A stretch of DNA of 64,000 nucleotides from an uncultured Candidatus Saccharibacteria bacterium (GCA_964557535.1 CAZLAD010000001.1:58482-122481), one strand, 5' to 3'; positions 747 through 38,468 are shown, numbered from the stretch's first letter. The notes: generated by a model not told the origin, from the sequence alone. Numbers and translations are program-made.

Positions 747-2483
747 TTAAAAAAGATTTTCTGGGTTTACGCGGATTTGCCAGTCGGGGGTGAGGGAGGT
801 GAGAATTTCGGAGAGTTTGGGGTCTTGGAATTCTTCGTTCCAAATTTTCTTCGAAAGTTTTAAGATTATCAGACTTTCAAAAGTTCTCCCGCGTTTTATT
901 CGACGAGCTAGAGGATTCCAAATTGAAAGATGAGACACAAGAGGTGAGACATTAGAATCAAAATCATCCTTGTTTGACGTTCGTGAAATTCTCATCAGTG
1001 TCCCAAATGGTGGATAGCCGAATTTTTCACGCATGGATTTTTCAAATTCGTAAAATTCTTGCAAGTTTCCGTTCGCCAAAGTTTTTATGGCCAAATTTTC
1101 TATGTCGCGAGTTTGCAAAATTGCTTTCGGTGATAAATTTTTTACAGCGAATCCTAGCGAGAGAATTTTTTCGTAAATTTTATAACTTGGAATTGATAAA
1201 AGCGCGTCGAGAGAGATGATGGCGGTAACGTCGAGTGGTTTGTAGAGGTGGGGGATAGCGAGCTCCGTGCCAACCAAAATCGAATTTGGCGTTTCATAAA
1301 ACTTTTGGACGGTTTCGCGAACTTTTTTGTTAGTCTTCGTCACGTCACCATCGATTTGAAAGATTTTTTTCTTTGGAAAAAGTTTCTTCGCTTCGAGGGC
1401 GATAGTATCGGTGCCGATGCCGAGCGTGTCAAAATTCCAACTACCACAATTCCCACACCTGGTCTTTGGATCAAGTGTTGCACCAGTTTGCGGATTTAGA
1501 AGCACTCTTTCTCCCGCACGCTCTCGCAAAACGAGACCGATATCACCATCTTTTACAATTTGCCCACAATCATGACATACGACCGAGCTTCCGAGGCCCT
1601 TGCGCAAAGCAAAGGCAAAAGCTTTGTCGCTCGTCTTAAATTCCTCAAAAACTTTTTTGGAAAAAATAAAACTTTTTTTCTCTCGATTCTCCTTGTCACT
1701 CATATCAATCACACGAATGGAGGTCGGACCTTGGGTTTTGGTGATTTTCAAATTGTTTTCGACAATTGTTTCGAGTGAAAGTGGTGCGCCAATGAATTCT
1801 ATTTTGATTTTTAAATTTTCGGCCAAGGTACGGAAAAAATATCGCAGATCAAAATATGGTCGTTTGAGGCTTCGATACGCCGAAGAATGTTCATCGTGAA
1901 TTATGATTTTGCCCAAATCGTGTCGTGGCGTAAATGCAAATGATGGAGTCATGATGACGACTACGGGTCCAGGATTTTCCAAAATTTCTTGGTAACGAGC
2001 GAGCAATGTCTTTTTTCTCAAACTTCCGTGGATGACGAAAACATCTCTGTCTAAAGTTTCGGCTAGGCGTTCGACGGCACGGACGGTCGGCGCGATATGA
2101 AAAACTGATGAGCCGACCGTCCGTGATACTGGCTTCGGCAGATCTTCATAATGTTCCAAAAATTCTATTGGCAGAAAGTAGTTGACAATTTGTCCTAAAT
2201 TGCCGACAAAAAATCTTTTCGTTTTATCGCAGGCGATAAAAAATTCTTTGTAAAATTTGGTCTTACCTTTGACGCTTTCAATCTTTTTGAAACCAAATAT
2301 TGCTGTTTTGATTTCTTGTTTCAAGTCTTTGGCGTCGCGAACTCCGACGACCAGAGCGTCGTATTTTTTCTTTCTGACTTCGATCTCGACGACATCACCT
2401 ATAGAAATGTCTTTGGCCGAGAAATAGGTTAGAGAGTCTTTTTGGACTTTGGCGGATATTGGGCTGACTTCGACGAGTTTCAT
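747..2483 (-). CDS. priA: Primosomal protein N' (PriA)-like helicase with degenerate ATPase motifs
   Basis: Helicase motif II IIIHDEHSSAY matches DEEH. C-terminal Cys-rich Zn-binding region CHDCGQ...CGNCGS is present. The Walker A position reads VGSSVFHIAP instead of GxGKT, and motif III SAT reads GAP. The N-terminal 3'BD/WH region is short. Confidence 0.7.
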   Translation of the reverse strand: MKLVEVSPISAKVQKDSLTYFSAKDISIGDVVEIEVRKKKYDALVVGVRDAKDLKQEIKTAIFGFKKIESVKGKTKFYKEFFIACDKTKRFFVGNLGQIVNYFLPIEFLEHYEDLPKPVSRTVGSSVFHIAPTVRAVERLAETLDRDVFVIHGSLRKKTLLARYQEILENPGPVVVIMTPSFAFTPRHDLGKIIIHDEHSSAYRSLKRPYFDLRYFFRTLAENLKIKIEFIGAPLSLETIVENNLKITKTQGPTSIRVIDMSDKENREKKSFIFSKKVFEEFKTSDKAFAFALRKGLGSSVVCHDCGQIVKDGDIGLVLRERAGERVLLNPQTGATLDPKTRCGNCGSWNFDTLGIGTDTIALEAKKLFPKKKIFQIDGDVTKTNKKVRETVQKFYETPNSILVGTELAIPHLYKPLDVTAIISLDALLSIPSYKIYEKILSLGFAVKNLSPKAILQTRDIENLAIKTLANGNLQEFYEFEKSMREKFGYPPFGTLMRISRTSNKDDFDSNVSPLVSHLSIWNPLARRIKRGRTFESLIILKLSKKIWNEEFQDPKLSEILTSLTPDWQIRVNPENLF

Positions 2484-2600
2484 CCCGTTAGAGATAGCAA
2501 ACCTTAGTTTGCGTACCTTTGTTATTGTTTTGTAAATAATTTACGACCACGGCGATATTTCCATCAAGATTAATTGTAACCAAGTTATCTCTAACGGGAT
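2482..2600 (-). repeat. Intergenic IR-bounded element E1 (119 nt), reverse orientation, abutting the priA start codon
   Basis: Terminal inverted repeats ATCCCGTTAGAGAT (2482-2495) and ATCTCTAACGGGAT (2587-2600). Read on the minus strand it ends TACGCAAA-hairpin-TTTGCTATCTCTAACGGG followed directly by the priA ATG. Confidence 0.75.
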
Positions 2601-2661
2601 TCATGCCTTCATCATAGCATTTTGGAAATTCGACACGAAAAGGTAAGATAGACACGTAATT

Positions 2662-3981
2662 ATGAGTGACATATTCAAGATCAAGGGCGGGAAAAAACTA
2701 AAAGGCACCATTAGACCACAAGGCTCGAAAAACGAGGCTTTTCAGGTTATCGCCGCGACGCTTCTGACTGACGAAGACGTGGTTATTGAAAATATTCCAG
2801 AAGTTTTGGATATCTTGAATTTGTTCGAAATCCTAAAAATTTTGGGCGTCGAAATTACGAAGCTCGGTCACGGTTCTTACAAACTAAACGCAAGCGCCGT
2901 CGATGTCGAGAAAATGAAATCGGAAGAATTTTCAAAACTTTTCTCCAAACTTCGCGGATCACTTTTGGTTGCGGGTGCGATGCTTGGGCGATTTGGAAAA
3001 AGTGTCATTCAACAGCCAGGCGGAGACAAAATCGGAATTCGTCCAATCACAACTCACGTCAAAGCCTTTGCCGATATTGGTGCGGATGTAGAAACAAAAG
3101 GAGATTTTCAGGAACTTGTTTTGAAAAATATTGTTTCGAAAAGGATCACTTTGAGCGAAACTTCGGTTACTGGAACAGCCAACGCAATCCTCTCGGCTGT
3201 TTTGGAAAAAGAATCTCCGCATGTTTTGGAAATTTATAACGCCGGTTGCGAAACTTATATCCAGCAGCTTTGCAAAATGTTAAACAATATGGGCGCCAAG
3301 ATTTCTGGTGCAGGCACGAATCTTGTCGTTATCGAATCAGTCAAAAAACTACACGCTACAAATCACACTCTTTTGCCGGACATGCTCGAAATCGTCAGCT
3401 TGATCGTGCTTGGAGTTGTGTGTGGCGAAGGAATTTTTATAGAAGGTGCCAAGAGAGAACACATCGGCGAAATTACAAATATTGTTTTGAAGAAACTCGG
3501 TGTGCGTTTCGAAGAGCGAGAAGATGGATTTTTCGTTCCCGAACACAAAGAATATGAAATCCAAAAACCGAGAACTCCAGGAAAAAATATTCGTATCATT
3601 TATGATGACAAATGGCCGGGACTTTCGCCGGACCACATCAGTAGTCTGATTGTGCTTTGTGTTTATGCCAAGGGCATGGTGACTATTCGTCAACGCATGT
3701 TTGATCGACGACTTCTGTTCTGTGACGTTTTGAACACCATGGGCGCAGAAATTGTCATGTCGCATCATCAGGAAGTTACGGTTGTTGGGAATAATCGAAG
3801 TCGAACTTTGGTTGGTCTCGAGATGGCATCACCTGATATTCGCGCCGGCATGGCACTACTTATCGCCGCGCTTTCAGCCAAAGGCGAAAGTATTATCCAA
3901 AATGCGCATCAGATAAATCGTGGTTACGAACAAATCGTTGAGCGACTTCAAACTCTCGGCGCCGATATAGAATATGCCTAA
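2662..3981 (+). CDS. murA: UDP-N-acetylglucosamine 1-carboxyvinyltransferase (MurA), active-site Cys replaced by Asp
   Basis: Full-length MurA similarity (KGGKKLKGTIRPQGSKNEA...). The active-site loop reads QPGGDKIGIRP where E. coli has LPGGCAIGARP. Confidence 0.95.
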   Translation: MSDIFKIKGGKKLKGTIRPQGSKNEAFQVIAATLLTDEDVVIENIPEVLDILNLFEILKILGVEITKLGHGSYKLNASAVDVEKMKSEEFSKLFSKLRGSLLVAGAMLGRFGKSVIQQPGGDKIGIRPITTHVKAFADIGADVETKGDFQELVLKNIVSKRITLSETSVTGTANAILSAVLEKESPHVLEIYNAGCETYIQQLCKMLNNMGAKISGAGTNLVVIESVKKLHATNHTLLPDMLEIVSLIVLGVVCGEGIFIEGAKREHIGEITNIVLKKLGVRFEEREDGFFVPEHKEYEIQKPRTPGKNIRIIYDDKWPGLSPDHISSLIVLCVYAKGMVTIRQRMFDRRLLFCDVLNTMGAEIVMSHHQEVTVVGNNRSRTLVGLEMASPDIRAGMALLIAALSAKGESIIQNAHQINRGYEQIVERLQTLGADIEYA

Positions 3982-4996
3982 CATCGAAGAAAATGTTTCT
4001 CTAAAAGAATTTACGACCTTCAAAGTTGGCGGCAACGCCAAATACTTTTTTGTTCTAAAAGACAAGTCGGAAGTTCCCGAAGTTGTGAGATTTGCTCGCG
4101 AGAAAGAAATCCCTCTTTTCGTTTTAGGCGGAGGATCAAATATTATTGTTGCCGACGAAGAATTGAATGCATGCGTAATAAAAAATGAAATCCTTGGACG
4201 CGAAATTTTAAACGAAAACGATAACCAGGTTTTGATTTCTGTTGGCGCGGGCGAGAATTGGGATGAGTTTGTTGGCTTTTGTGTTGAGCGAGGATTTTCT
4301 GGGGTTGAGGCACTATCGGCAATTCCAGGAACCGTTGGTGGGGCACCGATTCAAAACATTGGAGCCTATGGCGCCGAAGCAGGGAACACCATCGACTCAG
4401 TCTTGGTCTATGATATTGAAAAAGAAAATTTTGAAACTTTGTTAAAGACCGATTGCGAGTTTGCTTATCGCGACAGTATCTTCAAGAAATTTCCAGGAAG
4501 ATTTGTTGTGCTTGAAGTGGTTTTTAAATTATCTAAAAATCAAATTATAACCGTTCCAAATTATCCGGGAGTTTCTGAAAAGTTGGCTGAAAAAAACGTT
4601 ACAAATCCAAATCTTACGGATATACGTCAAACAATTACTGAAATCCGCGCCAATAAACTTCCTGATCCACGAGTTATTCCAAACGTCGGATCATTTTTCA
4701 AAAACCCAATTGTCTCAAAAGAAGTTTTTGAAAAAATAAAATCTATATTTCCAAATGTAAAATATTTTGAAATGGGCCCAGACTTCAAGATTCCGGCAGG
4801 CTGGCTTATTGAGACGGCCGGTCTTCGGGGTGTGGATTTTGGAAAGGTGGGTACTTATGCGAACAATGCTTTGGTTTTGGTAAACAAAGGCGACGCCGGG
4901 TACGAAGACGTGCTGGCAGCTCAGGGGAAAATTGTCTCTACTATAGAAGATAAATTCGGTATAAAATTAGAACGGGAGCCGATTTTAGTTGATTGA
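3974..4996 (+). CDS. murB: UDP-N-acetylenolpyruvoylglucosamine reductase (MurB)
   Basis: FAD-binding N-terminus KEFTTFKVGGNAKYFF...LGGGSNIIV. Overlaps the murA stop by 8 nt. Confidence 0.9.
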   Translation: MPNIEENVSLKEFTTFKVGGNAKYFFVLKDKSEVPEVVRFAREKEIPLFVLGGGSNIIVADEELNACVIKNEILGREILNENDNQVLISVGAGENWDEFVGFCVERGFSGVEALSAIPGTVGGAPIQNIGAYGAEAGNTIDSVLVYDIEKENFETLLKTDCEFAYRDSIFKKFPGRFVVLEVVFKLSKNQIITVPNYPGVSEKLAEKNVTNPNLTDIRQTITEIRANKLPDPRVIPNVGSFFKNPIVSKEVFEKIKSIFPNVKYFEMGPDFKIPAGWLIETAGLRGVDFGKVGTYANNALVLVNKGDAGYEDVLAAQGKIVSTIEDKFGIKLEREPILVD

Positions 4997-6432
4997 ATAT
5001 GAAATTAGAAGAGATTTTAAAAAACATTGAAGTCCTCGAAACCGTTGGCTCGGCCGATGTTATGGTCGAGCACCTTTCTCTTGATTCTCGAAATATAAAA
5101 CCAGATACTTTGTTTTTTGCCGTGTCGGGGACGAAAGTCGACGGACATGCTTTTATCGATACGGCGATTTCGGCTGGTGCCAAAATAATTGTTTGTGAAA
5201 AATTTCCAGAAAATTTAAATTCTGAAGTTACTTACGTTCGCGTCGAAAATACGAGTGAAATTGTCGGGCTTGTGGCTAAAAATTTTTTCGGCAACAACGA
5301 TTTTGAAATGAAAATTGTCGGTGTGACAGGCACGAACGGCAAAACCACGATTGCGACAATGCTTTATCAATTATTTACTTTGCTTGGCCACAAAGGCGGA
5401 CTACTTTCGACGGTTGAAAATATTATCGGGACAGAAGTTCTTCCGGCGACGCATACGACAGGCGATGCAATTCAAATCCAAGAAAATTTGGCCAAGATGC
5501 GCGAGGCCAAGACGAAATATTGCTTCATGGAGGTGAGCTCGCATGCGATTGATCAGAATAGAATTGCCGGAATTGATTTTACCGGCGGAATTTTTACAAA
5601 CTTGACCCAAGACCATCTCGATTACCATCAGACCCTTGATGAATACGCCAAAGTCAAGAAAGCTTTTTTCGATTCTTTAACCAATCAAGCTTTTGCACTT
5701 TATAATTCTGACGATAATCGGGGAAGTTTTATGGTTGCTGATACTCACGCAAAAATAATTTCATACGGTAAAGTTGCCGCAGATTTTATTTTTAAAGTAA
5801 AAAAATCTTCTGCCGACGGACTCGAGCTCGTCATTAACGATACGATAGTTGTAACGTCGCTTGTCGGAGAATTCAATGCGTACAATATCACAGCAATATT
5901 TGCGGCCGCCGTGACACTCGGCGCCAAGCCAGACGACGTCGTAACCGCAATCGCGAAGCTTTCCGGCGCGCGCGGACGCATGGAAAAAGCAACGAGCGCT
6001 TCGGGAATTTTTGGCTTGGTTGATTATGCGCACACGCCGGACGCTCTCGAAAATGTTTTGAAGACGATCAATACTTTCAAACAAGGTCGTGTCGTTACGG
6101 TTTTTGGTGCGGGTGGCGACAGAGATAAAACCAAGCGTCCCATAATGGGTGAAATCGCCTCAAGACTTAGTGATGTTGTTGTCGTTACATCAGATAATCC
6201 GCGAAGCGAACGACCCGAAGACATCGCCGATGACATTCTCGCCGGGATCAAAGATAAAACAAATGTCGAGACGATTCTCGATCGTCGTGAAGCGATCAAG
6301 CGGGCGGTCGAGATCTCAAAGCCTGGGGACATTGTTTTGGTCGCGGGCAAAGGCCACGAAGATTATCAGGATGTCGCCGGAGTCAAAAGTCATTTTTCTG
6401 ATTTAGAAGTTTTGAGAGAATTTTTATCATGA
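4993..6432 (+). CDS. murE: UDP-MurNAc-L-Ala-D-Glu:meso-DAP ligase (MurE)
   Basis: Mur ligase P-loop VGVTGTNGKTT. The DNPR motif (VTSDNPRSE) indicates meso-diaminopimelate specificity. The first ATG is at 4999; 4993 is a TTG. Confidence 0.92.
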   Translation: MNMKLEEILKNIEVLETVGSADVMVEHLSLDSRNIKPDTLFFAVSGTKVDGHAFIDTAISAGAKIIVCEKFPENLNSEVTYVRVENTSEIVGLVAKNFFGNNDFEMKIVGVTGTNGKTTIATMLYQLFTLLGHKGGLLSTVENIIGTEVLPATHTTGDAIQIQENLAKMREAKTKYCFMEVSSHAIDQNRIAGIDFTGGIFTNLTQDHLDYHQTLDEYAKVKKAFFDSLTNQAFALYNSDDNRGSFMVADTHAKIISYGKVAADFIFKVKKSSADGLELVINDTIVVTSLVGEFNAYNITAIFAAAVTLGAKPDDVVTAIAKLSGARGRMEKATSASGIFGLVDYAHTPDALENVLKTINTFKQGRVVTVFGAGGDRDKTKRPIMGEIASRLSDVVVVTSDNPRSERPEDIADDILAGIKDKTNVETILDRREAIKRAVEISKPGDIVLVAGKGHEDYQDVAGVKSHFSDLEVLREFLS

Positions 6433-20970: not shown

Positions 20971-21360
20971 ATGAAAGAATATCTGGATCGGCTTGAGGGT
21001 ATAGACTTGCCCCTCGCCATCAAGGAAAATGACCTGATTCCGCAACTCGTTGATATCGGTATTGAAGCCAGGCGTATAGTGCTGGCTTGTGCTGATCGTC
21101 ACTTTTACTATAAAAGCGACGGCGGACACTTTCTTCCGGCCATTACTCATCTGAAGCCGGTTTACAATGGAAGCGGTAATCTCTCCGCGATCTTACGCCG
21201 AGACTATCCGCCATCATACGATGATGCTGTCGCGAGTTTAGAAGACATACTGAGCGACGGAGTTGGTAAGAAGGTTTACGTCAGAGTTGACCTGAGTGTT
21301 TCTGGCAGAAGCGTCGCCGTGCAGGTGTACGTTTATGTCGGCGTATGGGCCAAGAAGTAG
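20971..21360 (+). CDS. Hypothetical protein (129 aa)
   Basis: Coherent ORF with slightly elevated GC and no motifs. Its 3' end lies upstream of the alaS promoter. Confidence 0.4.
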   Translation: MKEYLDRLEGIDLPLAIKENDLIPQLVDIGIEARRIVLACADRHFYYKSDGGHFLPAITHLKPVYNGSGNLSAILRRDYPPSYDDAVASLEDILSDGVGKKVYVRVDLSVSGRSVAVQVYVYVGVWAKK

Positions 21361-21436
21361 CTCTCTCGAACGACGGCCACAAAGGCCAAGTGAGACAGCC
21401 CCGGGCAGGGGGCTTTTTCATTTCCTGTATTTCCGC

Positions 21437-21442
21437 TATACT
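21437..21442 (+). promoter_or_regulatory. -10 TATACT 7 nt upstream of the alaS ATG (leaderless)
   Basis: gcTATACT, then ttcactc, then ATG at 21450. Confidence 0.45.
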
Positions 21443-21449
21443 TTCACTC

Positions 21450-23168
21450 ATGACAAGCAACGAAATTCGCAATAGATTTCTAAAATTCTTTGAATCAAAA
21501 GGCCACACAATTTTGCCTTCGGCTTCTCTTGTGCCTCAGGGCGATTCCTCGGTCCTATTTACGACGGCTGGTATGCAACCACTCGTGCCGTATCTTTTGG
21601 GTGAGAAGCATCCCGGTGGAACACGTTTGGCAAGTGTCCAGAAATGTTTGCGCACGGGCGACATCGACGACATAGGAGACAATCGTCACCTAACATTTTT
21701 TGAAATGCTCGGGAACTGGTCATTGGGAGACTATTTCAAAGATGAATCAATTGCTTGGAGTTATGAATTTTTGACGGACAAGAATGTTGGACTCGGGCTT
21801 GATCCGACGCGGCTTTATATCACATGTTTTGAGGGTGATGCCAATGCGCCTCGCGATCTCGAATCTGCTGAACTTTGGAAGAAATCTGGAATTCCCGAAT
21901 CGCGAATCTATTTTTTGGGTAAAGAAGATAACTGGTGGGGACCGGGTGACAATGGCCCGTGTGGACCGGATACGGAAATCTTTTACGATGTCACTGGAAA
22001 ATGCGGGGAACTTTCGCATGAAGAATTTTTACGTGCTCAAAAAGAAGAAAAGGTGATCGAGATCTGGAACAACGTTTTCATGGAATATCGATCCGAGAAC
22101 GGCAAAGTCGTCGGCAAACTCGAACAGAAAAATGTCGACACCGGAATGGGATTGGAACGCATTACGGCGGTGGTAAATGGACTGGATAATGTTTACGAAA
22201 CAGATCTTTTCTTCGGAGAAAAAACCAAAGAAGAAAGAATTGTTGTTGATCACGTCAAAGCCGCACTTTTCTTGATTACTGACGGAATTTTGCCAGGAAA
22301 TACCGGTCAAGGCTACATCTTGCGTCGTTTGATTCGTCGGGCTGCCCGATTTTCCAAAGAACAACTCACAGAAATGATTACTAAAGTAAAAGAAATCTAT
22401 AAAGGAATTTACGATTTGGATGACAAAGGTGAAATCACTAAAGAAGAAGTTAAATTCCGCGAAACTCTGGAAAAAGGTTTGAAAGAATTTGAAAAAGGAA
22501 CTGATCCTTTTGTTTTGTTTACGACATACGGTTTTCCAATTGAATTGACGGACGAACTTGCAAAGGAGAAAGGTAGAATAATTGATCATAAAGACTTTTA
22601 TATAAAAATGAAGAACCACCAACAACTCTCCCAAACCTCGTCTGCTGGAATGTTCAAGGGAGGTCTAGCGAACCACAACGAAGCGACGATCAAACTCCAC
22701 ACTGCGCACCATTTGCTACTCGCAGCACTACAGAGTATCCTTGGTCCTGAGGTTAAACAGCGGGGAAGTAACATCACCGAAGAACGTCTGCGCATCGATT
22801 TCTCTTTTGATCGTAAAATGACTGATGAAGAAAAAGCTCGTGTCGAAAATATTGTAAACGACGCTATCCAAAAAGATTACAAAGTCGTCAGACGCGAAAT
22901 GACGAAAGATGAAGCGGAAAAAATTGGCGCCCAGATGGAATTTGGCGCGAAGTATGGTGACATGGTCTCGGTTTATTTTATTGGCGGGGAAAGGTCGGAC
23001 CTTAAAGACGTCAAAGGTCCGATCTTGAGGAGCCAAGAAAATCCTTTCAGTATCGAATTCTGCGGTGGGCCTCATGTGGAACACACGGGTCTTCTGGGTA
23101 AATTTAAAATTCAAAAAGAAGAAGCTTCTTCGGCCGGCGTTCGAAGAATAAAAGCAATTTTGGAGTAA
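21450..23168 (+). CDS. alaS: Alanyl-tRNA synthetase, short form lacking the C-terminal C-Ala domain
   Basis: Class II catalytic core (FTTAGMQP, GNWSLGDYFK), an editing domain with HxxxH...CxxxH (HTAHHLL...CGGPHV), and about 570 aa against about 870 for the canonical enzyme. The start follows the -10; the ORF track gives 21345. Confidence 0.9.
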   Translation: MTSNEIRNRFLKFFESKGHTILPSASLVPQGDSSVLFTTAGMQPLVPYLLGEKHPGGTRLASVQKCLRTGDIDDIGDNRHLTFFEMLGNWSLGDYFKDESIAWSYEFLTDKNVGLGLDPTRLYITCFEGDANAPRDLESAELWKKSGIPESRIYFLGKEDNWWGPGDNGPCGPDTEIFYDVTGKCGELSHEEFLRAQKEEKVIEIWNNVFMEYRSENGKVVGKLEQKNVDTGMGLERITAVVNGLDNVYETDLFFGEKTKEERIVVDHVKAALFLITDGILPGNTGQGYILRRLIRRAARFSKEQLTEMITKVKEIYKGIYDLDDKGEITKEEVKFRETLEKGLKEFEKGTDPFVLFTTYGFPIELTDELAKEKGRIIDHKDFYIKMKNHQQLSQTSSAGMFKGGLANHNEATIKLHTAHHLLLAALQSILGPEVKQRGSNITEERLRIDFSFDRKMTDEEKARVENIVNDAIQKDYKVVRREMTKDEAEKIGAQMEFGAKYGDMVSVYFIGGERSDLKDVKGPILRSQENPFSIEFCGGPHVEHTGLLGKFKIQKEEASSAGVRRIKAILE

Positions 23169-30773: not shown

Positions 30774-31298
30774 TTACATCCCAAAAGTTTCTCTGAGAGA
30801 CTTTTCGGTCACGGGGTCGATGTGTTGCGTGACGATGATCATGATTTCGTCAGCGAGATTCATGTCAGTTTTTATATTCATAAACAAATGTTCAAAAGGG
30901 TAGGGCGAGATCCACACAGAATTTTTCATACACAAAAATCCAGCTTTTTTGAGGATGTAGCGGATCGAGTCGCGCTCGCTTTTTCTCGATTCGGGGAAGT
31001 CCAGCATAACCATGCGCCAGTAGCCATCCCAGCGTGTATCGACGAGGCTGGTCGGAGTGCTAAGTTTGATATTTCGGAGTTTGTTTCGTCCCTCAGCTGT
31101 TAGACGTAGAAAAGACGACCGGTCGGTTGGGATTTCCTCTATAAGCCCGGATTCGGCCATGTTTTTGAGGCTTCGAGTTATGGCATATTTCTCGGCCGAA
31201 TCGCTTTCTAGGGCGAAAATTTCGCGGTTTATGGCCTTCTTGGAGCCCAATTTCTCGAGAATTTGCTTTTGGAGATTGGATTTTCTTGACATGCCCAA
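30774..31298 (-). CDS. PaaX-family winged-helix regulator-like protein (paralog 1), divergent from grpE
   Basis: C-terminal WDGYWRMVMLDFPESRKSERDSIRYILKKAGFLCMKNSVWISPYPFE matches the PaaX_C-type signature W..W..v.fD.pe....R..lr..L...GF..lq.SvW..P. It is paralogous to 35886..36455. Confidence 0.6.
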   Translation of the reverse strand: MGMSRKSNLQKQILEKLGSKKAINREIFALESDSAEKYAITRSLKNMAESGLIEEIPTDRSSFLRLTAEGRNKLRNIKLSTPTSLVDTRWDGYWRMVMLDFPESRKSERDSIRYILKKAGFLCMKNSVWISPYPFEHLFMNIKTDMNLADEIMIIVTQHIDPVTEKSLRETFGM

Positions 31299-31349
31299 AA
31301 TGTAGCATATAATACTTTAACTAGCAAGTTTTCCACGGTCGTGAAAAAC

Positions 31350-31377
31350 TTGTCAAAATTATAAAATTGATTATAAT
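31350..31377 (+). promoter_or_regulatory. grpE-dnaK operon promoter (TTGTCA-16-TATAAT), 6 nt from the ATG; leaderless
   Basis: TTGTCA at 31350-55 and TATAAT at 31372-77, with ATG at 31384. It is preceded by the palindromic motif CACGGTCGTG (31339-31348), which also occurs in element E7. Confidence 0.65.
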
Positions 31378-31383
31378 TGGCCC

Positions 31384-31926
31384 ATGAATGATGAATTAGA
31401 TAATGAAATAGAATTTACTGACGAGGACGGAGAATCGAGCCAAGCTGACAAGATCAAAAAGCTTCGGTCCGAACTCAAGGAGTCCAAAGACCAGTCGCAA
31501 AAGAATCTAGATGGCTGGCAACGCGCTCTCGCGGACTATGCGAACCTCCAGAAGACTTCGAACGAGCAGATGAAGGAACTCAAAAGTTATGTGCTCGAGG
31601 GTTTTGTCGAAGAACTTCTGCCTACGCTCGATGCGTTTGAGATGGCGATGAAGAACAAGGAGACGTGGGAATCAGTTTCAGAGAATTGGCGCAAGGGAAT
31701 CGAATACATTTACGAGCAACTTCGCGCGATTCTCACGAACAATGGAGTGACCGAAATTGGCGATACGAAAGAAAAGTTTAATCCAGAACACCATCACGCG
31801 ATCGAAGAAATTGAAACGAGCGATGCTTCTAAAGATCACACCATTTCCGAAGTTGTTCAGAAAGGTTACAAGTCGGCGAAGGGTGTCATCAGGCCAGCGA
31901 AAGTGAAAATATTTATTAAAAAATAA
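31384..31926 (+). CDS. grpE: Nucleotide exchange factor GrpE
   Basis: Acidic N-terminus, coiled coil, GrpE core (YANLQKTS...LPTLDAFEMA...FNPEHHHAI). Confidence 0.9.
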   Translation: MNDELDNEIEFTDEDGESSQADKIKKLRSELKESKDQSQKNLDGWQRALADYANLQKTSNEQMKELKSYVLEGFVEELLPTLDAFEMAMKNKETWESVSENWRKGIEYIYEQLRAILTNNGVTEIGDTKEKFNPEHHHAIEEIETSDASKDHTISEVVQKGYKSAKGVIRPAKVKIFIKK

Positions 31927-31948
31927 TTATTAGCATAATTCAAAAAAT

Positions 31949-33835
31949 ATGAGCAAAATTATTGGAATCGATTTAGGAACTACAAACAGTGCTGTCGCCA
32001 TCATTGAGGGTGGTCAGCCGAAAATTATTGAGAATGCGGAGGGGATGAGAACGACGCCCTCGATTGTTGCTTTGGCCAAAAACGGCGACACGATGGTGGG
32101 TGTAACAGCCAAGCGCCAATCAATCACAAATCCGAAAAACACGATCTACCAAATCAAACGCTTTATCGGCCACAATTTCGACGAACCAGAAGTCCAGAAG
32201 GATATAAAAGCCGTGCCTTTTGAAACGCGAAAATCTGCAAATGGCGGTATCGAAGTAAAATTCGGTGAAGACTGGAAACGTCCAGAAGAAATCTCGGCGA
32301 TGATTCTCCAGAAAATCAAAGCCGACGTTGAAGCGAAAATCGGCCAGAAAGTTACCGAAGCTGTCATCACTGTTCCGGCATATTTCAACGACGCACAACG
32401 CCAAGCGACAAAAGATGCCGGTAAAATTGCCGGACTCGACGTCAAACGCATCATCAACGAACCGACTGCGGCGGCCCTCGCGTACGGATTTAACAAGAAA
32501 AAAGATGAAAAGGTAGTCGTCTTTGACTTTGGAGGTGGAACATATGACGTATCTATTCTTGAAGTATCCGAAGACACGATCGAGGTCAAGTCTACCGACG
32601 GCGACGCGCACTTGGGCGGCAAGGATATCGATCAGAAAATCATGGACTGGCTAGCTGAAGGATTCCAAAAGGAAAATGGTATTGATTTGCGTAAAGATCC
32701 ATTGGCTAAACAGCGTCTCGACGATGCCGCGGAGAAAGCGAAAATCGAACTCTCAACTGCTGTGCAGTCAGAAATCAACATTCCATTTATCACATCTGGT
32801 GAAGCCGGACCACTTCACCTCGTTCGCACTATGAAGCGTGCCGAGCTCGAAGAACTAACACGTGAATTTATTGATCGTGCGATGATGATCACCAAGCGTG
32901 CGATGGAAGCTTCGCCGTTCAAAATTTCTGATATCAACGAAGTTATTCTCGTCGGCGGTCAGACTCGCATGCCGGCTATTCAGGAAGCTGTCGAAAAATT
33001 CTTTGGCAAAAAGGTAAACCTATCTGTTAACCCAGACGAAGTTGTAGCACTCGGCGCAGCGATTCAGGGCGGAGTTTTGCAGGGTGATGTCAAAGACGTT
33101 CTCTTGCTCGACGTGATCCCGCTCTCACTCGGTATAGAGACTTTGGGAGGTGTTGCGACAAAACTCATCGAGAAAAATACGACAATTCCCGCAAGCAAGT
33201 CACAAGTGTTCTCAACCGCAGCTGACAATCAGACTTCAACAGAGATTCACATCGTTCAGGGCGAGCGACCAATGGCAACGGACAACAAATCTCTCGGACG
33301 ATTCGTCCTCGAAGGAATTCCGCCGGCGCCACGAGGCGTACCGCAAATTGAAGTTACGTTTGATATCGACGCGAACGGAATCTTGAATGTTAAGGCGAAA
33401 GACAAAACTTCCGGCAAAGAACAGTCTATCCGTATCGAAGCCTCGTCCGGTCTCTCTGATGCTGAAATTGAGAAGATGAAGAAAGATGCCGAGCTCAATG
33501 CCGAAGCAGACAAGAAAAAGAAAGAACTTGTTGATATAAAAAATAATGCCGAGATGACGATATTCACTGCAGAAAAAGCAATGAAAGACGCCGAAGGCAA
33601 AATTGGCGATGATGTGAAGAAGTCTGTTGAAGAAAAAGTTGCTAAACTAAAGGAGGTCAAAGAGTTGCCAGATCACCATACCGATGACGGTGGACGCCTA
33701 AAGTCTGCGACAGATGAGCTTATGACCGAAATGCAGAAAATCGGCGAGGCGATGAGTAAGGCGCAGGCCGCTGAACCAAAAGCCGAAGAAACAAAAAAGG
33801 ATGACAATATTCAAGACGCTGAGGTTCAAAACTAA
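31949..33835 (+). CDS. dnaK: Chaperone DnaK (Hsp70)
   Basis: [25 protein letters not shown] and [11 protein letters not shown] motifs. Full length. Confidence 0.97.
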
Positions 33836-33837
33836 TT

Positions 33838-34488
33838 ATGAGTCTTGTTAGTGATGTAAAAGATAATATTGTAGACTTTGTGAAAGAAAGAGGGTCAAGT
33901 CCCTTTTGGGTGCCGTATGTTATTGCATGGGCATTTCTTCACTGGAAAGCAGTCTATGTAACAATTTTTGTTGGTTCGGATAGTTTGGAAGGTATAACTA
34001 AGTTGGATTATGTGATAAAAAATTTACCTCGAATGGAGTGGTGGTGGACGACACTTGTTGCGCTTGGGATTACTTACTTTTACTACATATTCATACGTTT
34101 TATTGTTAATCCAACATACTGGCTTAAATATTGGGCAATAAAACATAGGTTTAAGATAAAAGAGGAAGCTGACAGAGAAATAATCGAGGAAAAAATAAAA
34201 ACAGAACAAGCTCAGGATAGTTTAGACAACCAGTGGATTCAAGATTATGAGGAATTCACCATAAGTGCTGAGAATAGAGTAAAACTAGATTCGCTAATAA
34301 ATCTTATCTACAGCGATTCGGCTGGAAATTTACAGCACTCAGGTAACTATAATCTCAATAGATCTGATGTTGCCTTTTTTGATGCTTTAAAAATAGTTCA
34401 CATCGAGGAAGATAAATACGGTAATAAAAGAGCTTCTTTAACCGACAAGGGTAAATATTTCTATAGTCTGTCGAAAAAAAATAAATAA
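33838..34488 (+). CDS. Hypothetical two-TM membrane protein embedded in the dnaK operon
   Basis: Starts 3 nt after the dnaK stop. Two hydrophobic helices, an Arg/Glu-rich cytoplasmic segment, and about 35% GC, which is lower than dnaK (about 46%). Confidence 0.55.
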   Translation: MSLVSDVKDNIVDFVKERGSSPFWVPYVIAWAFLHWKAVYVTIFVGSDSLEGITKLDYVIKNLPRMEWWWTTLVALGITYFYYIFIRFIVNPTYWLKYWAIKHRFKIKEEADREIIEEKIKTEQAQDSLDNQWIQDYEEFTISAENRVKLDSLINLIYSDSAGNLQHSGNYNLNRSDVAFFDALKIVHIEEDKYGNKRASLTDKGKYFYSLSKKNK

Positions 34489-34489
34489 A

Positions 34490-34942
34490 ATGTCAAAAGA
34501 TCACAGAGATAAAATTATTGAGATGACTTCTGGGTTAGATGTTAAACATTCAGTTCATGAACCAGTCGGAAAGAGTAAGGAAGCTTCAGAGCTTCGTGGT
34601 GTTCCACTTTCTTCGGGAGCGAAAGCTATCCTTATCCAAGGCAAGAAAACAGACAAAAGATATTTGTTTGTCGTACCGGCCCATAAAAGATTAGACTCAA
34701 AAAGTGTCCAAAATACGATCGGAGAAAAGTTTTCGTTTGTCTCGGATGTTGAAAAGGAGTTTGATTGCGTTCCGGGATCAGTATCGCCGTTTGGTAGTGT
34801 CTTGGGTCTTCAAACGTATGCCGATGAGGGACTTGAAGATGTGCTAAACTTTAACATCGGTCTTCTGACAGAATCTCTACAAATGAAGAAAGAAGATTAT
34901 TTGAAATTAGAAAACCCGATTCTTGGAAATTTCACTGAATAA
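34490..34942 (+). CDS. YbaK/ProX-family aminoacyl-tRNA trans-editing deacylase-like protein
   Basis: [11 protein letters not shown]...[16 protein letters not shown]...[22 protein letters not shown] fits the YbaK/EbsC fold signature. Translationally coupled between the membrane-protein ORF and dnaJ. Confidence 0.6.
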
Positions 34943-34943
34943 A

Positions 34944-35825
34944 ATGTCAAAAGACTATTACAAAATTCTAGAAGTTGATAAAAGCGCTTCCAAAGAAGAG
35001 CTGAAAAAAGCTTTTCGTAAAAAGGCGCACGAATATCATCCGGACAAGAAAACTGGCAATGAAGCCAAGTTCAAGGAAGTGAACGAGGCTTACCAGGTTC
35101 TTTCTGACGACCAGAAACGCGCACAGTACGATCGGTTTGGTTCTGCCGGACCGCAGTTTGGCGGTCAAGGAAGTCAGGGCTTTGGTGGATTCGATTTTGG
35201 CGGATTCAATATCAACTTCGACGGTTTCCAGAATGGTCAGGAATTTGATTTGAACGACTTGTTCTCGGCTTTTGGTGGCGGAGGATTCGGCCGCCGCGTC
35301 AAACGCGGCAGGGACATAATTTTGTCACTTAGTATTTCGTTTAAAGAATCTGTTCAGGGAACTTCCAAAACTATCAAAGTTCCGTCCGAAAGCGCACAGA
35401 AAGGAAAGGGTGAAGTCGAATTCAAAATCCCAGCCGGTATCGAGTCAGGACAGATGATGAAGCTCCAAGGCTATGGCGAGCCAGTTGCCGATGGTCAGCC
35501 AGGAGATCTACTTCTCAAAATCTACGTCGAGTCACATAAATCTTTGCGCAAAGAGGGAATTCATCTTGTCACGAATCTCTCTGTCAAACTTACCGACGCC
35601 ATCCTCGGCGCGACGTATGACGTCGAAGGTGTTGATGGTCCGATCAAAATCAAAATTCCAAAAGGCATAAACACTGGCAAAATTCTCCGCATCAAAGGCG
35701 CCGGCGTCGCCGCAGGGCGTTTCCAGCATGGCGACCTGCTCGTCGTTGTCGAAGTTGAAATTCCAGATTCACTTTCTCGCGAACAAAAGAAAATCATTGA
35801 AGATCTCCAAAAATCCGGTTTGTAA
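34944..35825 (+). CDS. dnaJ: DnaJ-class co-chaperone (CbpA-like, no zinc-finger domain)
   Basis: J-domain with HPD (YYKILEV...YHPDK), a G/F-rich region, and C-terminal substrate-binding domains. No CxxCxGxG repeats. Confidence 0.85.
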
Positions 35826-35885: not shown

Positions 35886-36455
35886 ATGAAAAAGGTTTTT
35901 CGGAAGGCTAAAATAGATTACAAAGAAATCGTATTGAAATCACTTTTAGCTCTTGGTATTGTCGGACTTGCTACTCTAGCTCCAAATGCATTACAAATAA
36001 TAAAACTATTCCAAAACGACAAGGATTACAAATACCGAAAATATAATTTAAACAAAAAGATTTTTCTTTTACAAAAACAAGGCTATATTTATTTTGTCAC
36101 GAGAAATGGACAAAAGTTTGTGACGCTGACACCAAAAGGTAAGAAAGAAGTTGATAAATATTTACTTGGAGATCTGCAAATAAAAAAGCCCAAGAAGTGG
36201 GACAAGAAGTGGCGGATTGTTAGTTTTGATGTGAAAAATACCAGAACACCGCTTCGCAATCTCTTACGGCATCACTTGCGCCGTCTTGGATTTGTGCAAT
36301 ATCAGAAAAGTATTTGGATTCATCCGTATGATTGTGAGGAAATTATCATTATGATGAAATCGTATTTTAAATTCGGCAAGGAAGTAATGTATATAGTGGC
36401 TGAGCATTTAGAAAATGATAAAGATCTTCAGAAACATTTTGAAATAAAACGATAA
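35886..36455 (+). CDS. PaaX-family regulator-like protein (paralog 2)
   Basis: WDKKWRIVSFDVKNTRTPLRNLLRHHLRRLGFVQYQKSIWIHPYDCEE aligns with the C-terminus of 30774..31298. About 36% GC. Confidence 0.6.
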   Translation: MKKVFRKAKIDYKEIVLKSLLALGIVGLATLAPNALQIIKLFQNDKDYKYRKYNLNKKIFLLQKQGYIYFVTRNGQKFVTLTPKGKKEVDKYLLGDLQIKKPKKWDKKWRIVSFDVKNTRTPLRNLLRHHLRRLGFVQYQKSIWIHPYDCEEIIIMMKSYFKFGKEVMYIVAEHLENDKDLQKHFEIKR

Positions 36456-36596: not shown

Positions 36597-37082
36597 TTAA
36601 TATCCAACACAATCACCCATTGACGCGCCTAATATTGGAATACCCAAAAGACTTGTATTTTTTGTGTAGGTAGAAACCCCTTTATTTTTGTATATCGTAT
36701 GAACAGTTATGTAATTTTCCCCTGTGCCTTCGATGTAGACTATTTTTTCTTCATTTTCGACTAATTTCAAAAGCGGGACATTAGTGATTGTTTTAGTTGC
36801 ATCAATATAGCTTAATTGACCCGTTTCGCTATTTTCTAGATCAGAGAACGTAAAAATTAAAGGATTGGTTTCGGGTTTGTTTAATGAATGAGAAATAAAG
36901 TTGTCAGAATAATTTGCACTTAAGGTTTGGGGGTAAGTACAGGTTATTTGTTGACCAAACGATAGATTTGTGTCCCAGAAGGGTCTCCTTGCTTCACTGT
37001 AATTAATAAAATTATAATGAAAAATTATATATCCAATCAACACTCCAACACTTATAAATCCGATTATTTTTAATATTTTCAT
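36597..37082 (-). CDS. Hypothetical exported or membrane-anchored protein (161 aa), AT-rich
   Basis: N-terminal TM/signal (ILKIIGFISVGVLIGYIIF). About 33% GC. No motifs. Confidence 0.5.
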   Translation of the reverse strand: MKILKIIGFISVGVLIGYIIFHYNFINYSEARRPFWDTNLSFGQQITCTYPQTLSANYSDNFISHSLNKPETNPLIFTFSDLENSETGQLSYIDATKTITNVPLLKLVENEEKIVYIEGTGENYITVHTIYKNKGVSTYTKNTSLLGIPILGASMGDCVGY

Positions 37083-37103: not shown

Positions 37104-38468
37104 TTATATCTTCCTCACCTCAAATTCCTCTCCCAAGTCTTTAATCTCGTAACCAAGAGACTTTATTTTATCGCGAAGCTCGTCTGATTTGTCCCAGTCT
37201 TTGGCGAGGCGGGCGGAGTTGCGTTCACGGGCGAGAGACAGGACTTCATCAGGAATTTCGTCACGGGTCCATGTGTCCATTCCGAGTCCGAGGACCTGGT
37301 CAAAGTCGAGAAGTGTCGCGCGTTTGTCGGCGAGGAGTGTTTCTTTGTCATTTACAAGTTCCCACATGACGGCCAAGGCTTTCGGCGTATTCAAATTGTC
37401 TTCCAAGGCCTCGGTAAATATTTTTTTATAATGCGCGCTCACGGTTCCGATGTCGGTTCCGAGATCGAGAAAATTATTTTTGAGTTTCTTCAGAGCATTT
37501 TGCGAAGCTTCGAGTGACTCCCAAGTGAAGTTTACAAGGCTTCGATAGTTGGCCTGGAGCAAAAAGTAGCGGTAGTCGATCGGACTGAAACCTTTTTCTT
37601 CCAAAGTTTTTAAGTAGACATCATTGCCCAAAGATTTGGAAATTTTTTCATCGTTTACGTTTAGGAAATTGTTGTGAAGCCAGAAGTTTACATATTTTTG
37701 ACCAGTGGCGTTTTCGGACTGGGCGATTTCGTTGTTGTGATGGATGGAGATGTGATCAATCCCGCCGGTGTGGATATCAAAATGCTCGCCCAAATATTTC
37801 ATCGACATACCGGAACATTCGATGTGCCAACCAGGAAAGCCTTTACCCCATGGCGTGTCCCAGCCGAGTTCGGAATTGAATTTCCAAAGCGCAAAGTCAC
37901 GCGGGTTTTTCTTTTCATTGTTTGTCTCCACACGTGCGACATTTTCATCTGAGAGTCCGCCAAGCGCGCCGTATTTGGAATCTTTGGAAGTATCAAAATA
38001 AAGTCCGTCAGAAGTTTTGTAGACGAAACCTTTTTCTTTCAGCTTTTTGATAATCTCAATGTCCTCGGCAATGTGATCAGTCGCGCGAGGGAACTTGTCG
38101 GCGAGAATTATGTTTAGTTTTTGTAAGTCTTCGATATAAGCTTTTTCGTATTTTTCGGCAACTTCTTTCATGGCTTCCACGGTCATTGGCAGACCCTCAC
38201 GTTTCAGGGCCTTGGTCATTTTGTCCTCGCCATCATCGCCGTCCGAAACGAGATGCCCGACGTCGGTTATGTTGATGACGTGTTTTACTTCCAGTCCTTC
38301 GTACCTTAGGGTTCGTTTCAAAATATCGGCGAAAACATACGAACGGAGATTTCCGATGTGGGCATAATTGTAAACGGTCGGTCCGCACGAATACATCTTG
38401 ACCAGACCTTCGGTCCGGGGCTTAAATTCTTCCTCGGTTTTTGAAAGGGTATTGTAAATTTTCAACAT
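37104..38468 (-). CDS. cysS: Cysteinyl-tRNA synthetase
   Basis: CGPTVYNYAHIGNLRSY (HIGH) and KMSKSLGN motifs, with Zn-binding Cys/His positions. Confidence 0.93.
   Translation of the reverse strand: MLKIYNTLSKTEEEFKPRTEGLVKMYSCGPTVYNYAHIGNLRSYVFADILKRTLRYEGLEVKHVINITDVGHLVSDGDDGEDKMTKALKREGLPMTVEAMKEVAEKYEKAYIEDLQKLNIILADKFPRATDHIAEDIEIIKKLKEKGFVYKTSDGLYFDTSKDSKYGALGGLSDENVARVETNNEKKNPRDFALWKFNSELGWDTPWGKGFPGWHIECSGMSMKYLGEHFDIHTGGIDHISIHHNNEIAQSENATGQKYVNFWLHNNFLNVNDEKISKSLGNDVYLKTLEEKGFSPIDYRYFLLQANYRSLVNFTWESLEASQNALKKLKNNFLDLGTDIGTVSAHYKKIFTEALEDNLNTPKALAVMWELVNDKETLLADKRATLLDFDQVLGLGMDTWTRDEIPDEVLSLARERNSARLAKDWDKSDELRDKIKSLGYEIKDLGEEFEVRKI

Follow-up and report, generated by a model that had tools for sequence, protein, structure and literature searches.

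A dnaK operon with two additional genes between dnaK and dnaJ was found in a 64,000-nt stretch of DNA (one strand, hereafter the window) from an uncultured Candidatus Saccharibacteria bacterium (GCA_964557535.1 CAZLAD010000001.1:58482-122481). On balance, it is best read as one chaperone unit which holds a long-standing gene for a putative aminoacyl-tRNA deacylase of 150 amino acids (aa) and, as a separate later addition, a gene for a 216-aa membrane protein (ORF216; ORF, open reading frame). ORF calling and Pfam searches showed five consecutive head-to-tail ORFs on the + strand at 31384-35825, and the gene order given by an earlier model reading of this DNA (the original prediction) was borne out. 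The five genes and the promoter-like sites in front of them are as follows.

31384..31926, + strand: grpE (180 aa), PF01025, E 1.5e-40
31949..33835, + strand: dnaK (628 aa), PF00012, E 2.3e-239
33838..34488, + strand: ORF216 (216 aa), no Pfam match
34490..34942, + strand: 150-aa INS-superfamily gene, PF04073 tRNA_edit, E 3.4e-17, 63.1 bits
34944..35825, + strand: dnaJ (293 aa), PF00226 and PF01556
31286..31313, + strand: distal sigma-70-like promoter, TTGACA-16-TATAAT, 12/12 match
31350..31377, + strand: proximal sigma-70-like promoter, TTGTCA-16-TATAAT, 11/12 match, 6 nt 5' of the grpE ATG

The junctions were read directly from the sequence. The dnaK/ORF216 junction consisted of TAA, 'tt' and ATG (2 intervening bases) while the ORF216/150-aa gene and 150-aa gene/dnaJ junctions each consisted of TAA, 'a' and ATG (1 intervening base); the spacings of 3, 2 and 2 nt in the original prediction are the coordinate differences of these same junctions. 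The longest dnaJ ORF begins at a TTG at 34923, and the start that fits the J domain and the homologues is the ATG at 34944 (MSKDYYKIL). No Shine-Dalgarno-like motif was found before the start of any gene of the operon, and no terminator-like site was seen on the + strand from grpE through the end of dnaJ. With the promoters lying upstream of grpE, it is plausible from these signals that grpE, dnaK, ORF216, the 150-aa gene and dnaJ are one transcription unit. The claim that all five genes are also coupled did not hold in full, since the grpE-dnaK gap was 22 nt and these two genes are therefore not tightly coupled. In addition, identical protein sequences for all five genes with the same neighbours were present in contigs of two further sequencing runs, and therefore ORF216 is not an assembly artefact. 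The dnaJ product matched PRK14299 and CbpA-type models over its full length. It has a J domain, a G/F region and C-terminal domains, and the CxxCxGxG zinc-finger domain was not detected with Pfam; at 293 aa it is class B / CbpA-like, though it is the sole J protein of the operon.

The 150-aa protein matched PF04073 over profile positions 1-123 of 123 and exceeded the gathering score of 25.5, so that the profile check asked for in the original prediction placed it in the expected family and not in an unrelated one. A total of 38 homologues were found at 35-90% identity, all with PF04073; several came from Paceibacterota or Patescibacteria metagenome-assembled genomes (MAGs) and some were auto-labelled 'Ala-tRNA(Pro) deacylase' by the Joint Genome Institute. 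A strictly conserved catalytic Lys and a GXXXP loop define the INS superfamily (PMC11286415). Alignment of 36 sequences (34-90% identity) showed that H23, S29, R36, S42, G43, K45 and A46 in the first half and C93, G96, V98, P100, G102, T109, D112, F121, N122, G124 and S129 in the second half were invariant. The GXXXP loop was G96-S-V-S-P100, and K45 aligned with ProXp-ala K45, the lysine of 'TKN' in 1VKI and 5VXB. The AlphaFold2 model of the protein had a predicted local distance difference test score of 88.4, and Foldseek produced matches with template modelling scores (TM-scores) of 0.76-0.86 and E 1e-10 to 2e-11 to 1VKI, 2CX5, 1WDV, 3OP6 and 1DBU; INS domains of prolyl-tRNA synthetase (ProRS) were also matched. 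The YbaK-type fold and the two catalytic motifs anticipated in the original prediction were therefore present. Since the model superposes on every single-domain INS structure, the fold confirms the superfamily and cannot resolve the subfamily.

Subfamily assignment was approached with profiles and signature residues. The family profile matched PDB entry 3OP6 (Legionella lpg1207) over its full length (residues 8-148, E 1.8e-17), ProXp-ala structures over residues 4-109 only (about E 3e-6 to 4e-9), ProXp-x (2CX5) with E 4e-7 and YbaK with E 2.6e-4. 'YbaK-like' was right as to superfamily, catalytic Lys and GxxxP loop and wrong as to YbaK itself, as the NCBIfam equivalog model TIGR00011 scored 22 bits against a cut-off of 153.25. 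The ProXp-ala family-specific residues are H23, K50, R80 and H130 in Caulobacter numbering (PMC11286415); when this signature was tested by alignment the 150-aa protein did not carry the set, and only H23 and K45 of the ProXp-ala signature residues were retained. By these comparisons the protein is placed in the lpg1207/3OP6-like clade of the INS superfamily, being neither YbaK proper nor a canonical ProXp-ala, and it is predicted to be a free-standing aminoacyl-tRNA deacylase. INS clusters ProXp-7, -8 and -9 are listed as uncharacterised in reviews (PMC11295145). The 150-aa gene is under strong purifying selection, with a ratio of nonsynonymous to synonymous substitution rates of 0.035-0.08 (0.035-0.05 against two relatives of ~90% identity), similar to that of dnaK (0.02-0.04).

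To survey the conservation of gene order, the family alignment was used to scan a single representative genome of each GTDB species; of 170 confirmed loci the best 80 were kept, and linkage was scored by tblastn with GrpE, DnaK and DnaJ of the window around each deacylase locus. Homologue and relative loci surveyed are designated L with a number. The 150-aa homologue was located in a same-strand dnaK-dnaJ locus in 30 of these 80 species-representative loci, with dnaK upstream in 29 and dnaJ downstream in 28 of the 30; identities to the window in the linked loci were 41-89% for the deacylase and 56-96% for DnaK. On a neighbour-joining tree of the 80 loci, which is crude, midpoint-rooted and without support values, linkage was present in 30 of the 35 species of patescibacterial clades and in none of the 45 outside, which were DPANN archaea, Methylomirabilota/Rokubacteria, Planctomycetota and others. 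The linked records were labelled Paceibacterota, Candidatus Uhrbacteria, Parcubacteria or Patescibacteria group. Several linked third-party annotation MAGs were labelled 'uncultured Gammaproteobacteria', a label which is doubtful because their sequences group with Uhrbacteria in the tree. Exact look-ups showed the order dnaK-[gap]-tRNA_edit-dnaJ in relatives with a deacylase 61-90% identical to that of the window. In one Paceibacterota MAG (L065 1732-4371) dnaK and the deacylase gene were split across frames, either by assembly error or by pseudogenisation, and this locus was not used as evidence.

The gene content between dnaK and dnaJ differed among the relatives. The dnaK/deacylase junction was 41 nt in L010 and an 80-nt inverted repeat in L008, while in L001 and L004-L007 it held a hairpin together with an ORF of 93-104 aa on the reverse strand, which encodes a small membrane protein and has a promoter-like site of its own. 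Uhrbacteria-type intervals had additional + strand genes encoding NUDIX proteins (two groups), DHH/DHHA2 proteins, a short-chain dehydrogenase/reductase (SDR) and proteins that could not be annotated. The occupants located were as follows.

L001 5668-5982, - strand: unannotated small membrane-protein gene, 104 aa, with promoter-like and terminator-like sites of its own
L004 3799-4080, - strand: unannotated small membrane-protein gene, 93 aa, with promoter-like and terminator-like sites of its own
L010 6482-6754, - strand: SemiSWEET gene between the deacylase gene and dnaJ
L036 4754-5674, L041 2855-3775, L044 4480-5400 and L048 1754-2674: Uhrbacteria-type DHH/DHHA2 phosphoesterase, 306 aa
L033 3583-4008, L035 4399-4974 and L033 4476-5219: further Uhrbacteria-type interval genes (two NUDIX kinds and SDR)

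Overall, the tRNA_edit gene is the constant of the interval while other occupants come and go. The Uhrbacteria-type interval may have a 'house-cleaning' theme. The operon of the window is also a mosaic: its deacylase was 89-90% identical to those of L001/L004 and 69% to that of L008, its DnaJ was 59-64% identical to those of L001/L004 and 79-82% to that of L008, and the C-terminal part of its DnaK grouped with L008. This pattern points to recombination within the locus and suggests breakpoints inside the operon. L065, with a DnaK N-terminal part 96% identical to that of the window, was rejected as recombination evidence, its genes being frameshifted and the DnaK N-terminal domain simply being more conserved. 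A direct repeat of 16 nt with two identical copies, ATAAAATGTCAAAAGA (stop, A, ATG TCA AAA GA), was observed at 34484-34499 and 34938-34953; the deacylase and DnaJ both begin with MSKD, and the repeat brackets the deacylase gene exactly and could mediate its deletion. The idea that the repeat is a duplication made when the deacylase gene was inserted was rejected as both starts look ancestral in their own families; it is not an origin signal because 'MS(K/E)xHRDKI' is the ancestral deacylase start and 'AAAATGTCAAAAGA' is the dnaJ start in L010 too.

The second additional gene, ORF216, differed in composition from its neighbours. Its guanine-cytosine (GC) content was 34.1% (30.9% at third codon positions) against 46.9% for dnaK and 46.7% for dnaJ, which agrees with the AT-richness pointed out in the original prediction, and it was the second lowest among the 44 window ORFs of at least 200 aa (mean 43.6%, standard deviation 5.1). 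Hydropathy showed hydrophobic segments at residues 27-46 and 71-91, corresponding to the two transmembrane helices proposed earlier. The predicted architecture is two transmembrane helices, a long coiled-coil helix and a C-terminal winged helix, with both termini inside; a basic stretch follows the second transmembrane helix and therefore the coiled coil and winged helix would be cytoplasmic (positive-inside rule). The C-terminal fold was a MarR/PadR-like winged helix of nucleic-acid-binding type, and the cytoplasmic part showed no similarity to J domains, nucleotide exchange factors or Hsp70-binding modules.

ORF216 at first appeared to be an orphan, as a word-indexed protein search matched only itself, and this was overturned by an exhaustive phmmer search of 1.84 billion proteins which produced 229 relatives at E ≤ 1e-3 and nine at E ≤ 1e-10 (best E 1.5e-12) with 23-39% identity. 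Alignment of 59 members showed an N-terminal motif ER-x-x-SPF(W/Y)-...-W-...-W(N/H)WK followed by the second transmembrane segment, conserved N-terminal positions S21, P22, W31, W36 and P75, and a long K/E-rich helix in the middle. The full-length subfamily has a C-terminal winged-helix domain ending in L-T-x-K-G-K-Y-F (L-T-x-K-G-x-Y/F), and ORF216 shares this ending. ORF216 had no family match in Pfam, NCBIfam or PADLOC. Against the anti-phage defence models of PADLOC-DB its relatives gave scattered single matches of coiled-coil type only, with none for the members in L123 and L147, and a Foldseek search of ORF216 against BFVD gave no significant match. In the PHROGs database, 54 of the 59 family members matched phrog_4780 (best E 1.9e-20), and many matched PHROGs 13369, 24478, 22645 and 35327, which are phage proteins without known function.

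The genomic contexts of the ORF216 family are a sample and not a census. An ORF216 homologue was a single opposite-strand gene in Escherichia phage EC.W1-9 and Klebsiella phage KO-TP1, and relatives were present on IMG/VR prophage contigs, one of them (L099) beside a serine recombinase and a DUF4145 gene. In L123 the relative was beside a type I restriction-modification S subunit and a cyclase/SLATT_6 pair of a cyclic-oligonucleotide-based anti-phage signalling system (CBASS), and in L147 it was beside an Mrr-like nuclease. The L123 defence island (1399-5768) consisted of the type I restriction-modification specificity subunit, a SLATT_6 effector with two transmembrane helices, a CBASS CD-NTase (SMODS and AGS_C) and then the ORF216 relative; a role for this relative as the CBASS effector was rejected because that CBASS already has its SLATT_6 effector. 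No conserved neighbour of the family was found across 28 loci. From these contexts, a role of ORF216 in phage exclusion or membrane sensing is the best guess, though a weakly supported one.

ORF216 was absent from the dnaK slot of the closest relatives sampled (L001, L004, L008, L010 and L020-L025), and no homologue was found in the wider survey of tRNA_edit-centred loci, where the slots held other small genes or almost nothing. The synteny asked for in the original prediction was therefore found for the 150-aa gene, which is conserved inside dnaK operons, and was lacking for ORF216 in the closest relatives; absence of both genes from the operons of all relatives was not what was found. The two additional genes do not behave as one unit, as ORF216 is missing where the deacylase gene stays, and the 'tolerated insertion' offered earlier fits ORF216 and does not fit the deacylase gene.

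According to the reading we favour, the five genes would be transcribed together, as a single stress-chaperone unit, from the promoter region upstream of grpE. The 150-aa gene would be a long-standing member of this unit, positioned between dnaK and dnaJ since before the split of Paceibacteria-like and Uhrbacteria-like lineages, and would encode a free-standing INS-superfamily hydrolase of the lpg1207/3OP6-like clade which most likely deacylates mischarged aminoacyl-tRNA via Lys45 and a GxxxP oxyanion loop. Quality control of mischarged tRNA, co-expressed with the chaperones, is the most likely reading of this gene. Mistranslation is linked to the heat-shock response and to protein misfolding, and fewer mistranslated proteins would mean a lower chaperone load. 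Induction of the operon would produce proofreading capacity along with the Hsp70 system, both of which would cut the load of misfolded protein, and this co-induction may be the selective reason for the linkage; a functional coupling to the chaperones is inferred. ORF216 would be a separate addition, a solitary accessory gene of a family also present in phages, at prophage ends and in defence islands, encoding a membrane-anchored and probably dimeric winged-helix protein. It would have landed in the dnaK/deacylase junction, a spot that has repeatedly gained and lost small genes and bears signs of recombination, and, given the 2-nt and 1-nt junctions, it would use the transcription of the operon and translation by termination-reinitiation.

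Several observations weigh against this reading, and they are given here together with the alternatives on which they bear. A weak promoter-like site (9/12) at 34438-34467, within the 3' end of ORF216, could be a further promoter, and in the closest relatives L001 and L004-L007 only the deacylase-dnaJ pair, and not the whole operon, can be co-transcribed. Only loci with the deacylase gene entered the synteny survey, so that its counts are not a fraction of patescibacterial dnaK operons. The 150-aa orthologue was located elsewhere in the Patescibacteria loci L003, L014-L016, L024, L052 and L053, and the dnaK-dnaJ slot of L102 had no deacylase gene, which shows that the linkage is not an obligatory one. 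For the deacylase gene, the chief alternative is that it was trapped neutrally in a compact operon: a housekeeping proofreading gene once inserted between dnaK and dnaJ would have stayed because small, streamlined genomes pack unrelated genes into common transcription units, and its position would be functionally meaningless. Such trapping would agree with these exceptions, with the unrelated genes held by the interval elsewhere (SDR, SemiSWEET, NUDIX and DHH) and with the lack of linkage in every non-patescibacterial homologue. It would also agree with three more distant homologues (52-57% identity), which lie between argS and ileS or have ruvX and a tRNA_bind-domain gene as neighbours; the argS/ileS and tRNA_bind neighbourhoods of unlinked patescibacterial copies are translation contexts, which counts in favour of the enzyme assignment. 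We consider it possible but doubtful, as the linkage holds down to 41% protein identity and in 30 of 35 clade representatives while other occupants turn over, the deacylase-dnaJ junction is 1-3 nt in the window, L001, L004 and L008, and gene-order conservation this deep is usually read in comparative genomics as co-regulation.

A wider proposal goes beyond the long-standing deacylase gene and the later ORF216. In a large part of the Patescibacteria the Hsp70 operon would then be a 'damage-control' module with the 3OP6-like hydrolase as a dedicated and co-regulated partner of DnaK/DnaJ, linking proofreading of aminoacyl-tRNA (or of nascent-chain esters) to folding stress; NUDIX and DHH enzymes that sanitise nucleotides would join in some lineages, and the ORF216-type membrane winged-helix protein, which recurs in the slot, would be a second, stress- or phage-responsive component and no chance insertion. 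This is rather unlikely in our estimate.

As for ORF216, its own match to phrog_4780 was marginal (E 0.0096, 16.5 bits), the phage link being made via intermediate relatives, and tblastn of ORF216 against 50,697 phage records gave no match. About half of the family contexts examined were ordinary housekeeping neighbourhoods, such as those of L105, L109, L126 and L141. The main rival to a later addition is ancient vertical presence with losses, in which ORF216 would be an old, fast-evolving member of the Paceibacteria dnaK operon, repeatedly lost and not inserted, and it is kept alive by L102. There, P0044 (241 aa, 34% identical to ORF216 and with the same architecture) occupies the same tightly packed slot between dnaK and dnaJ with a 1-nt gap after dnaK and an 8-nt overlap with dnaJ; the DnaK of L102 is 77% identical to that of the window, and the synteny rplQ-rplM-rpsI ... 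PaaX_M-grpE-dnaK is shared. For the N-terminal membrane domain, the best hit of ORF216 was P0044 and vice versa (51-57% over ~50-57 residues), and the presence of P0044 may mean that ORF216 is older than a recent insertion. For the C-terminal domain, neither protein had the other as its best hit. In lineages whose DnaK is 88-92% identical, the gene is lacking and the slot contains unrelated small ORFs or 41-80 nt, so that at least three losses would be needed; furthermore, the GC content of ORF216 is ~13 points under that of dnaK and dnaJ, and the family is elsewhere solitary and context-free. Old membership is accordingly judged unlikely. A metagenome search with the ORF216 and P0044 pair found nothing.

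Returning to the favoured deacylase reading, two observations bear against it at the level of substrate and of ProRS architecture: lpg1207, the sole solved member of the clade, is uncharacterised, and proS was not found among the ten large ORFs scanned in the window. Instead, the 150-aa protein might have taken on a role connected with Hsp70 that is non-tRNA or non-canonical, such as hydrolysing peptidyl-tRNA or aminoacyl esters on stalled chains received from DnaK/DnaJ. The 3OP6-like clade has no known substrate, it has specific invariants (C93, the PPFG loop and F121-N122-x-G124) that ProXp-ala and YbaK do not share, and the tightest conserved junction of the gene is with dnaJ. This role is nevertheless very improbable, given the intact superfamily catalytic Lys and GxxxP loop; moreover, the clade occurs without chaperone linkage in DPANN archaea, Methylomirabilota and Planctomycetota, and some Patescibacteria have it beside aminoacyl-tRNA synthetase genes, which fits a generic tRNA-directed role. 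Finally, it is hardly credible that ORF216 ties DnaK/DnaJ, possibly along with the deacylase, to the membrane in the tethered quality-control complex raised in the original prediction: although all three junctions are tight and a homologue is again found between dnaK and dnaJ in L102, its cytoplasmic part is a coiled coil with a MarR/PadR-like winged helix and not a chaperone-related module, it is absent from the closest relatives sampled, and no family locus was near dnaK among the 61 metagenome loci (0/61) or among the phage and several genome loci.

The region upstream of the operon contained two further features.

30774..31298, - strand: divergent PaaX_M-like winged-helix/Cas2-like protein (174 aa), PF20803, E 2.1e-21
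31326..31351, no strand assigned: operator-like palindrome AAGTTTTCCACGGTCGTGAAAAACTT, whose end meets the -35 of the proximal promoter

Pfam showed that the gene 5' of grpE is PaaX_M-like and not hrcA, and a PaaX_M-like homologue adjoins grpE in L001, L004, L010, L021, L022, L025, L065 and L102. The divergent gene is a candidate regulator. The layout of the palindrome 5' of grpE, in the form ACAAGTWTTT..N..AAAAACTTGTCA, was common to L001 (2700-2725), L004 (734-759), L020 (1-26), L065 (450-475) and L102 (3395-3420), and a variant with altered central bases was present 5' of grpE in L021, L022 and L025. The palindrome may serve as operator for a heat-shock regulator other than HrcA, or it may be a hairpin of the 5' untranslated region. 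A search for CIRCE (TTAGCACTC-N9-GAGTGCTAA) gave 0 matches at ≤3 mismatches in the 64-kb window.

Other genes around the operon were also observed. The upstream PaaX_M gene is kept beside grpE in many relatives at 45-64% identity. A second PaaX_M paralogue (winged helix and Cas2-like) is present at 35886-36455 on the + strand, so that paralogues flank the operon on both sides; this downstream gene has 32.6% GC, is ~27% identical to the upstream one and was not found at that position in relatives. The cysS gene (37104-38468, - strand) is convergent and 3' of dnaJ, with the same position in L001, L004, L010, L021, L025 and L065. Its proximity to a YbaK-superfamily gene is curious; it is on the opposite strand and a link would be conjectural. 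Between the second PaaX_M gene and cysS there is a 161-aa ORF (36597-37082, - strand) with 32.1% GC and an N-terminal hydrophobic segment, for which no family match was found. In addition, the alanyl-tRNA synthetase ORF at 21345-23168 encodes 607 aa (tRNA-synt_2c and tRNA_SAD), apparently without the C-terminal extension that is usual.

A physiological connection between mistranslation and protein misfolding is known. A conserved genetic linkage of a trans-editing-type enzyme with the Hsp70 system was not found in the literature searched, nor was any paper on YbaK together with the dnaK operon or Patescibacteria. The neighbourhood in ~30 patescibacterial species offers a testable hypothesis for an INS clade with no known substrate, namely a stress-co-induced deacylase. 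The locus also bears on quality-control wiring in reduced genomes, as it has a different upstream palindrome and a PaaX_M-like neighbour in the place of HrcA/CIRCE, and small accessory genes appear to use the dnaK-dnaJ interval as a landing pad that is prone to recombination. Finally, the predicted two transmembrane helices, coiled coil and winged helix provide a first structural description of the ORF216 family, which is common to phages and cells.

Compared with known systems, the operon resembles the canonical bacterial dnaK operon, which, for example in Bacillus subtilis, has the order hrcA-grpE-dnaK-dnaJ and a CIRCE operator, in having grpE-dnaK-dnaJ in order on one strand behind a sigma-70-type promoter. 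It differs in lacking hrcA at the locus and CIRCE in the window, in having another conserved palindrome and a divergently transcribed PaaX_M-like gene upstream, in the two additional genes between dnaK and dnaJ, and in a dnaJ without a detectable zinc-finger domain.

For the 150-aa protein, the nearest structure is lpg1207 of Legionella pneumophila (3OP6), an uncharacterised single-domain INS-superfamily protein on which no paper was found in the literature searched. The two share the fold (TM-score 0.72-0.77) and the motifs H-x-P near residue 23, A-K, C-x-x-G-x-x-P-P-F-G and F-N-x-G, with only ~23% identity, so that the match names the clade and not the activity. ProXp-ala, which deacylates Ala-tRNA(Pro) (5VXB, 1VJF and 1VKI), has the same fold (TM-score 0.78-0.81), H23 and K45 align and the PGSV loop is present in the 150-aa protein. 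However, K50 of ProXp-ala aligns to a variable position (Q50 in the 150-aa protein), R80 falls in an insertion without counterpart and the H130 region is not alignable. YbaK (Cys-tRNA(Pro) deacylase; 1DBU) shares the superfamily, the fold (TM-score 0.79), the catalytic Lys and the GxxxP loop, but the TIGR00011 score and the weak PDB profile E-value indicate that the 150-aa protein is not a YbaK orthologue. Lastly, the phrog_4780-related phage proteins have a 'moron'-like placement; ORF216 is, like them, a solitary gene without a partner, and it differs from them in being located, tightly packed and on the same strand, in a cellular housekeeping operon.

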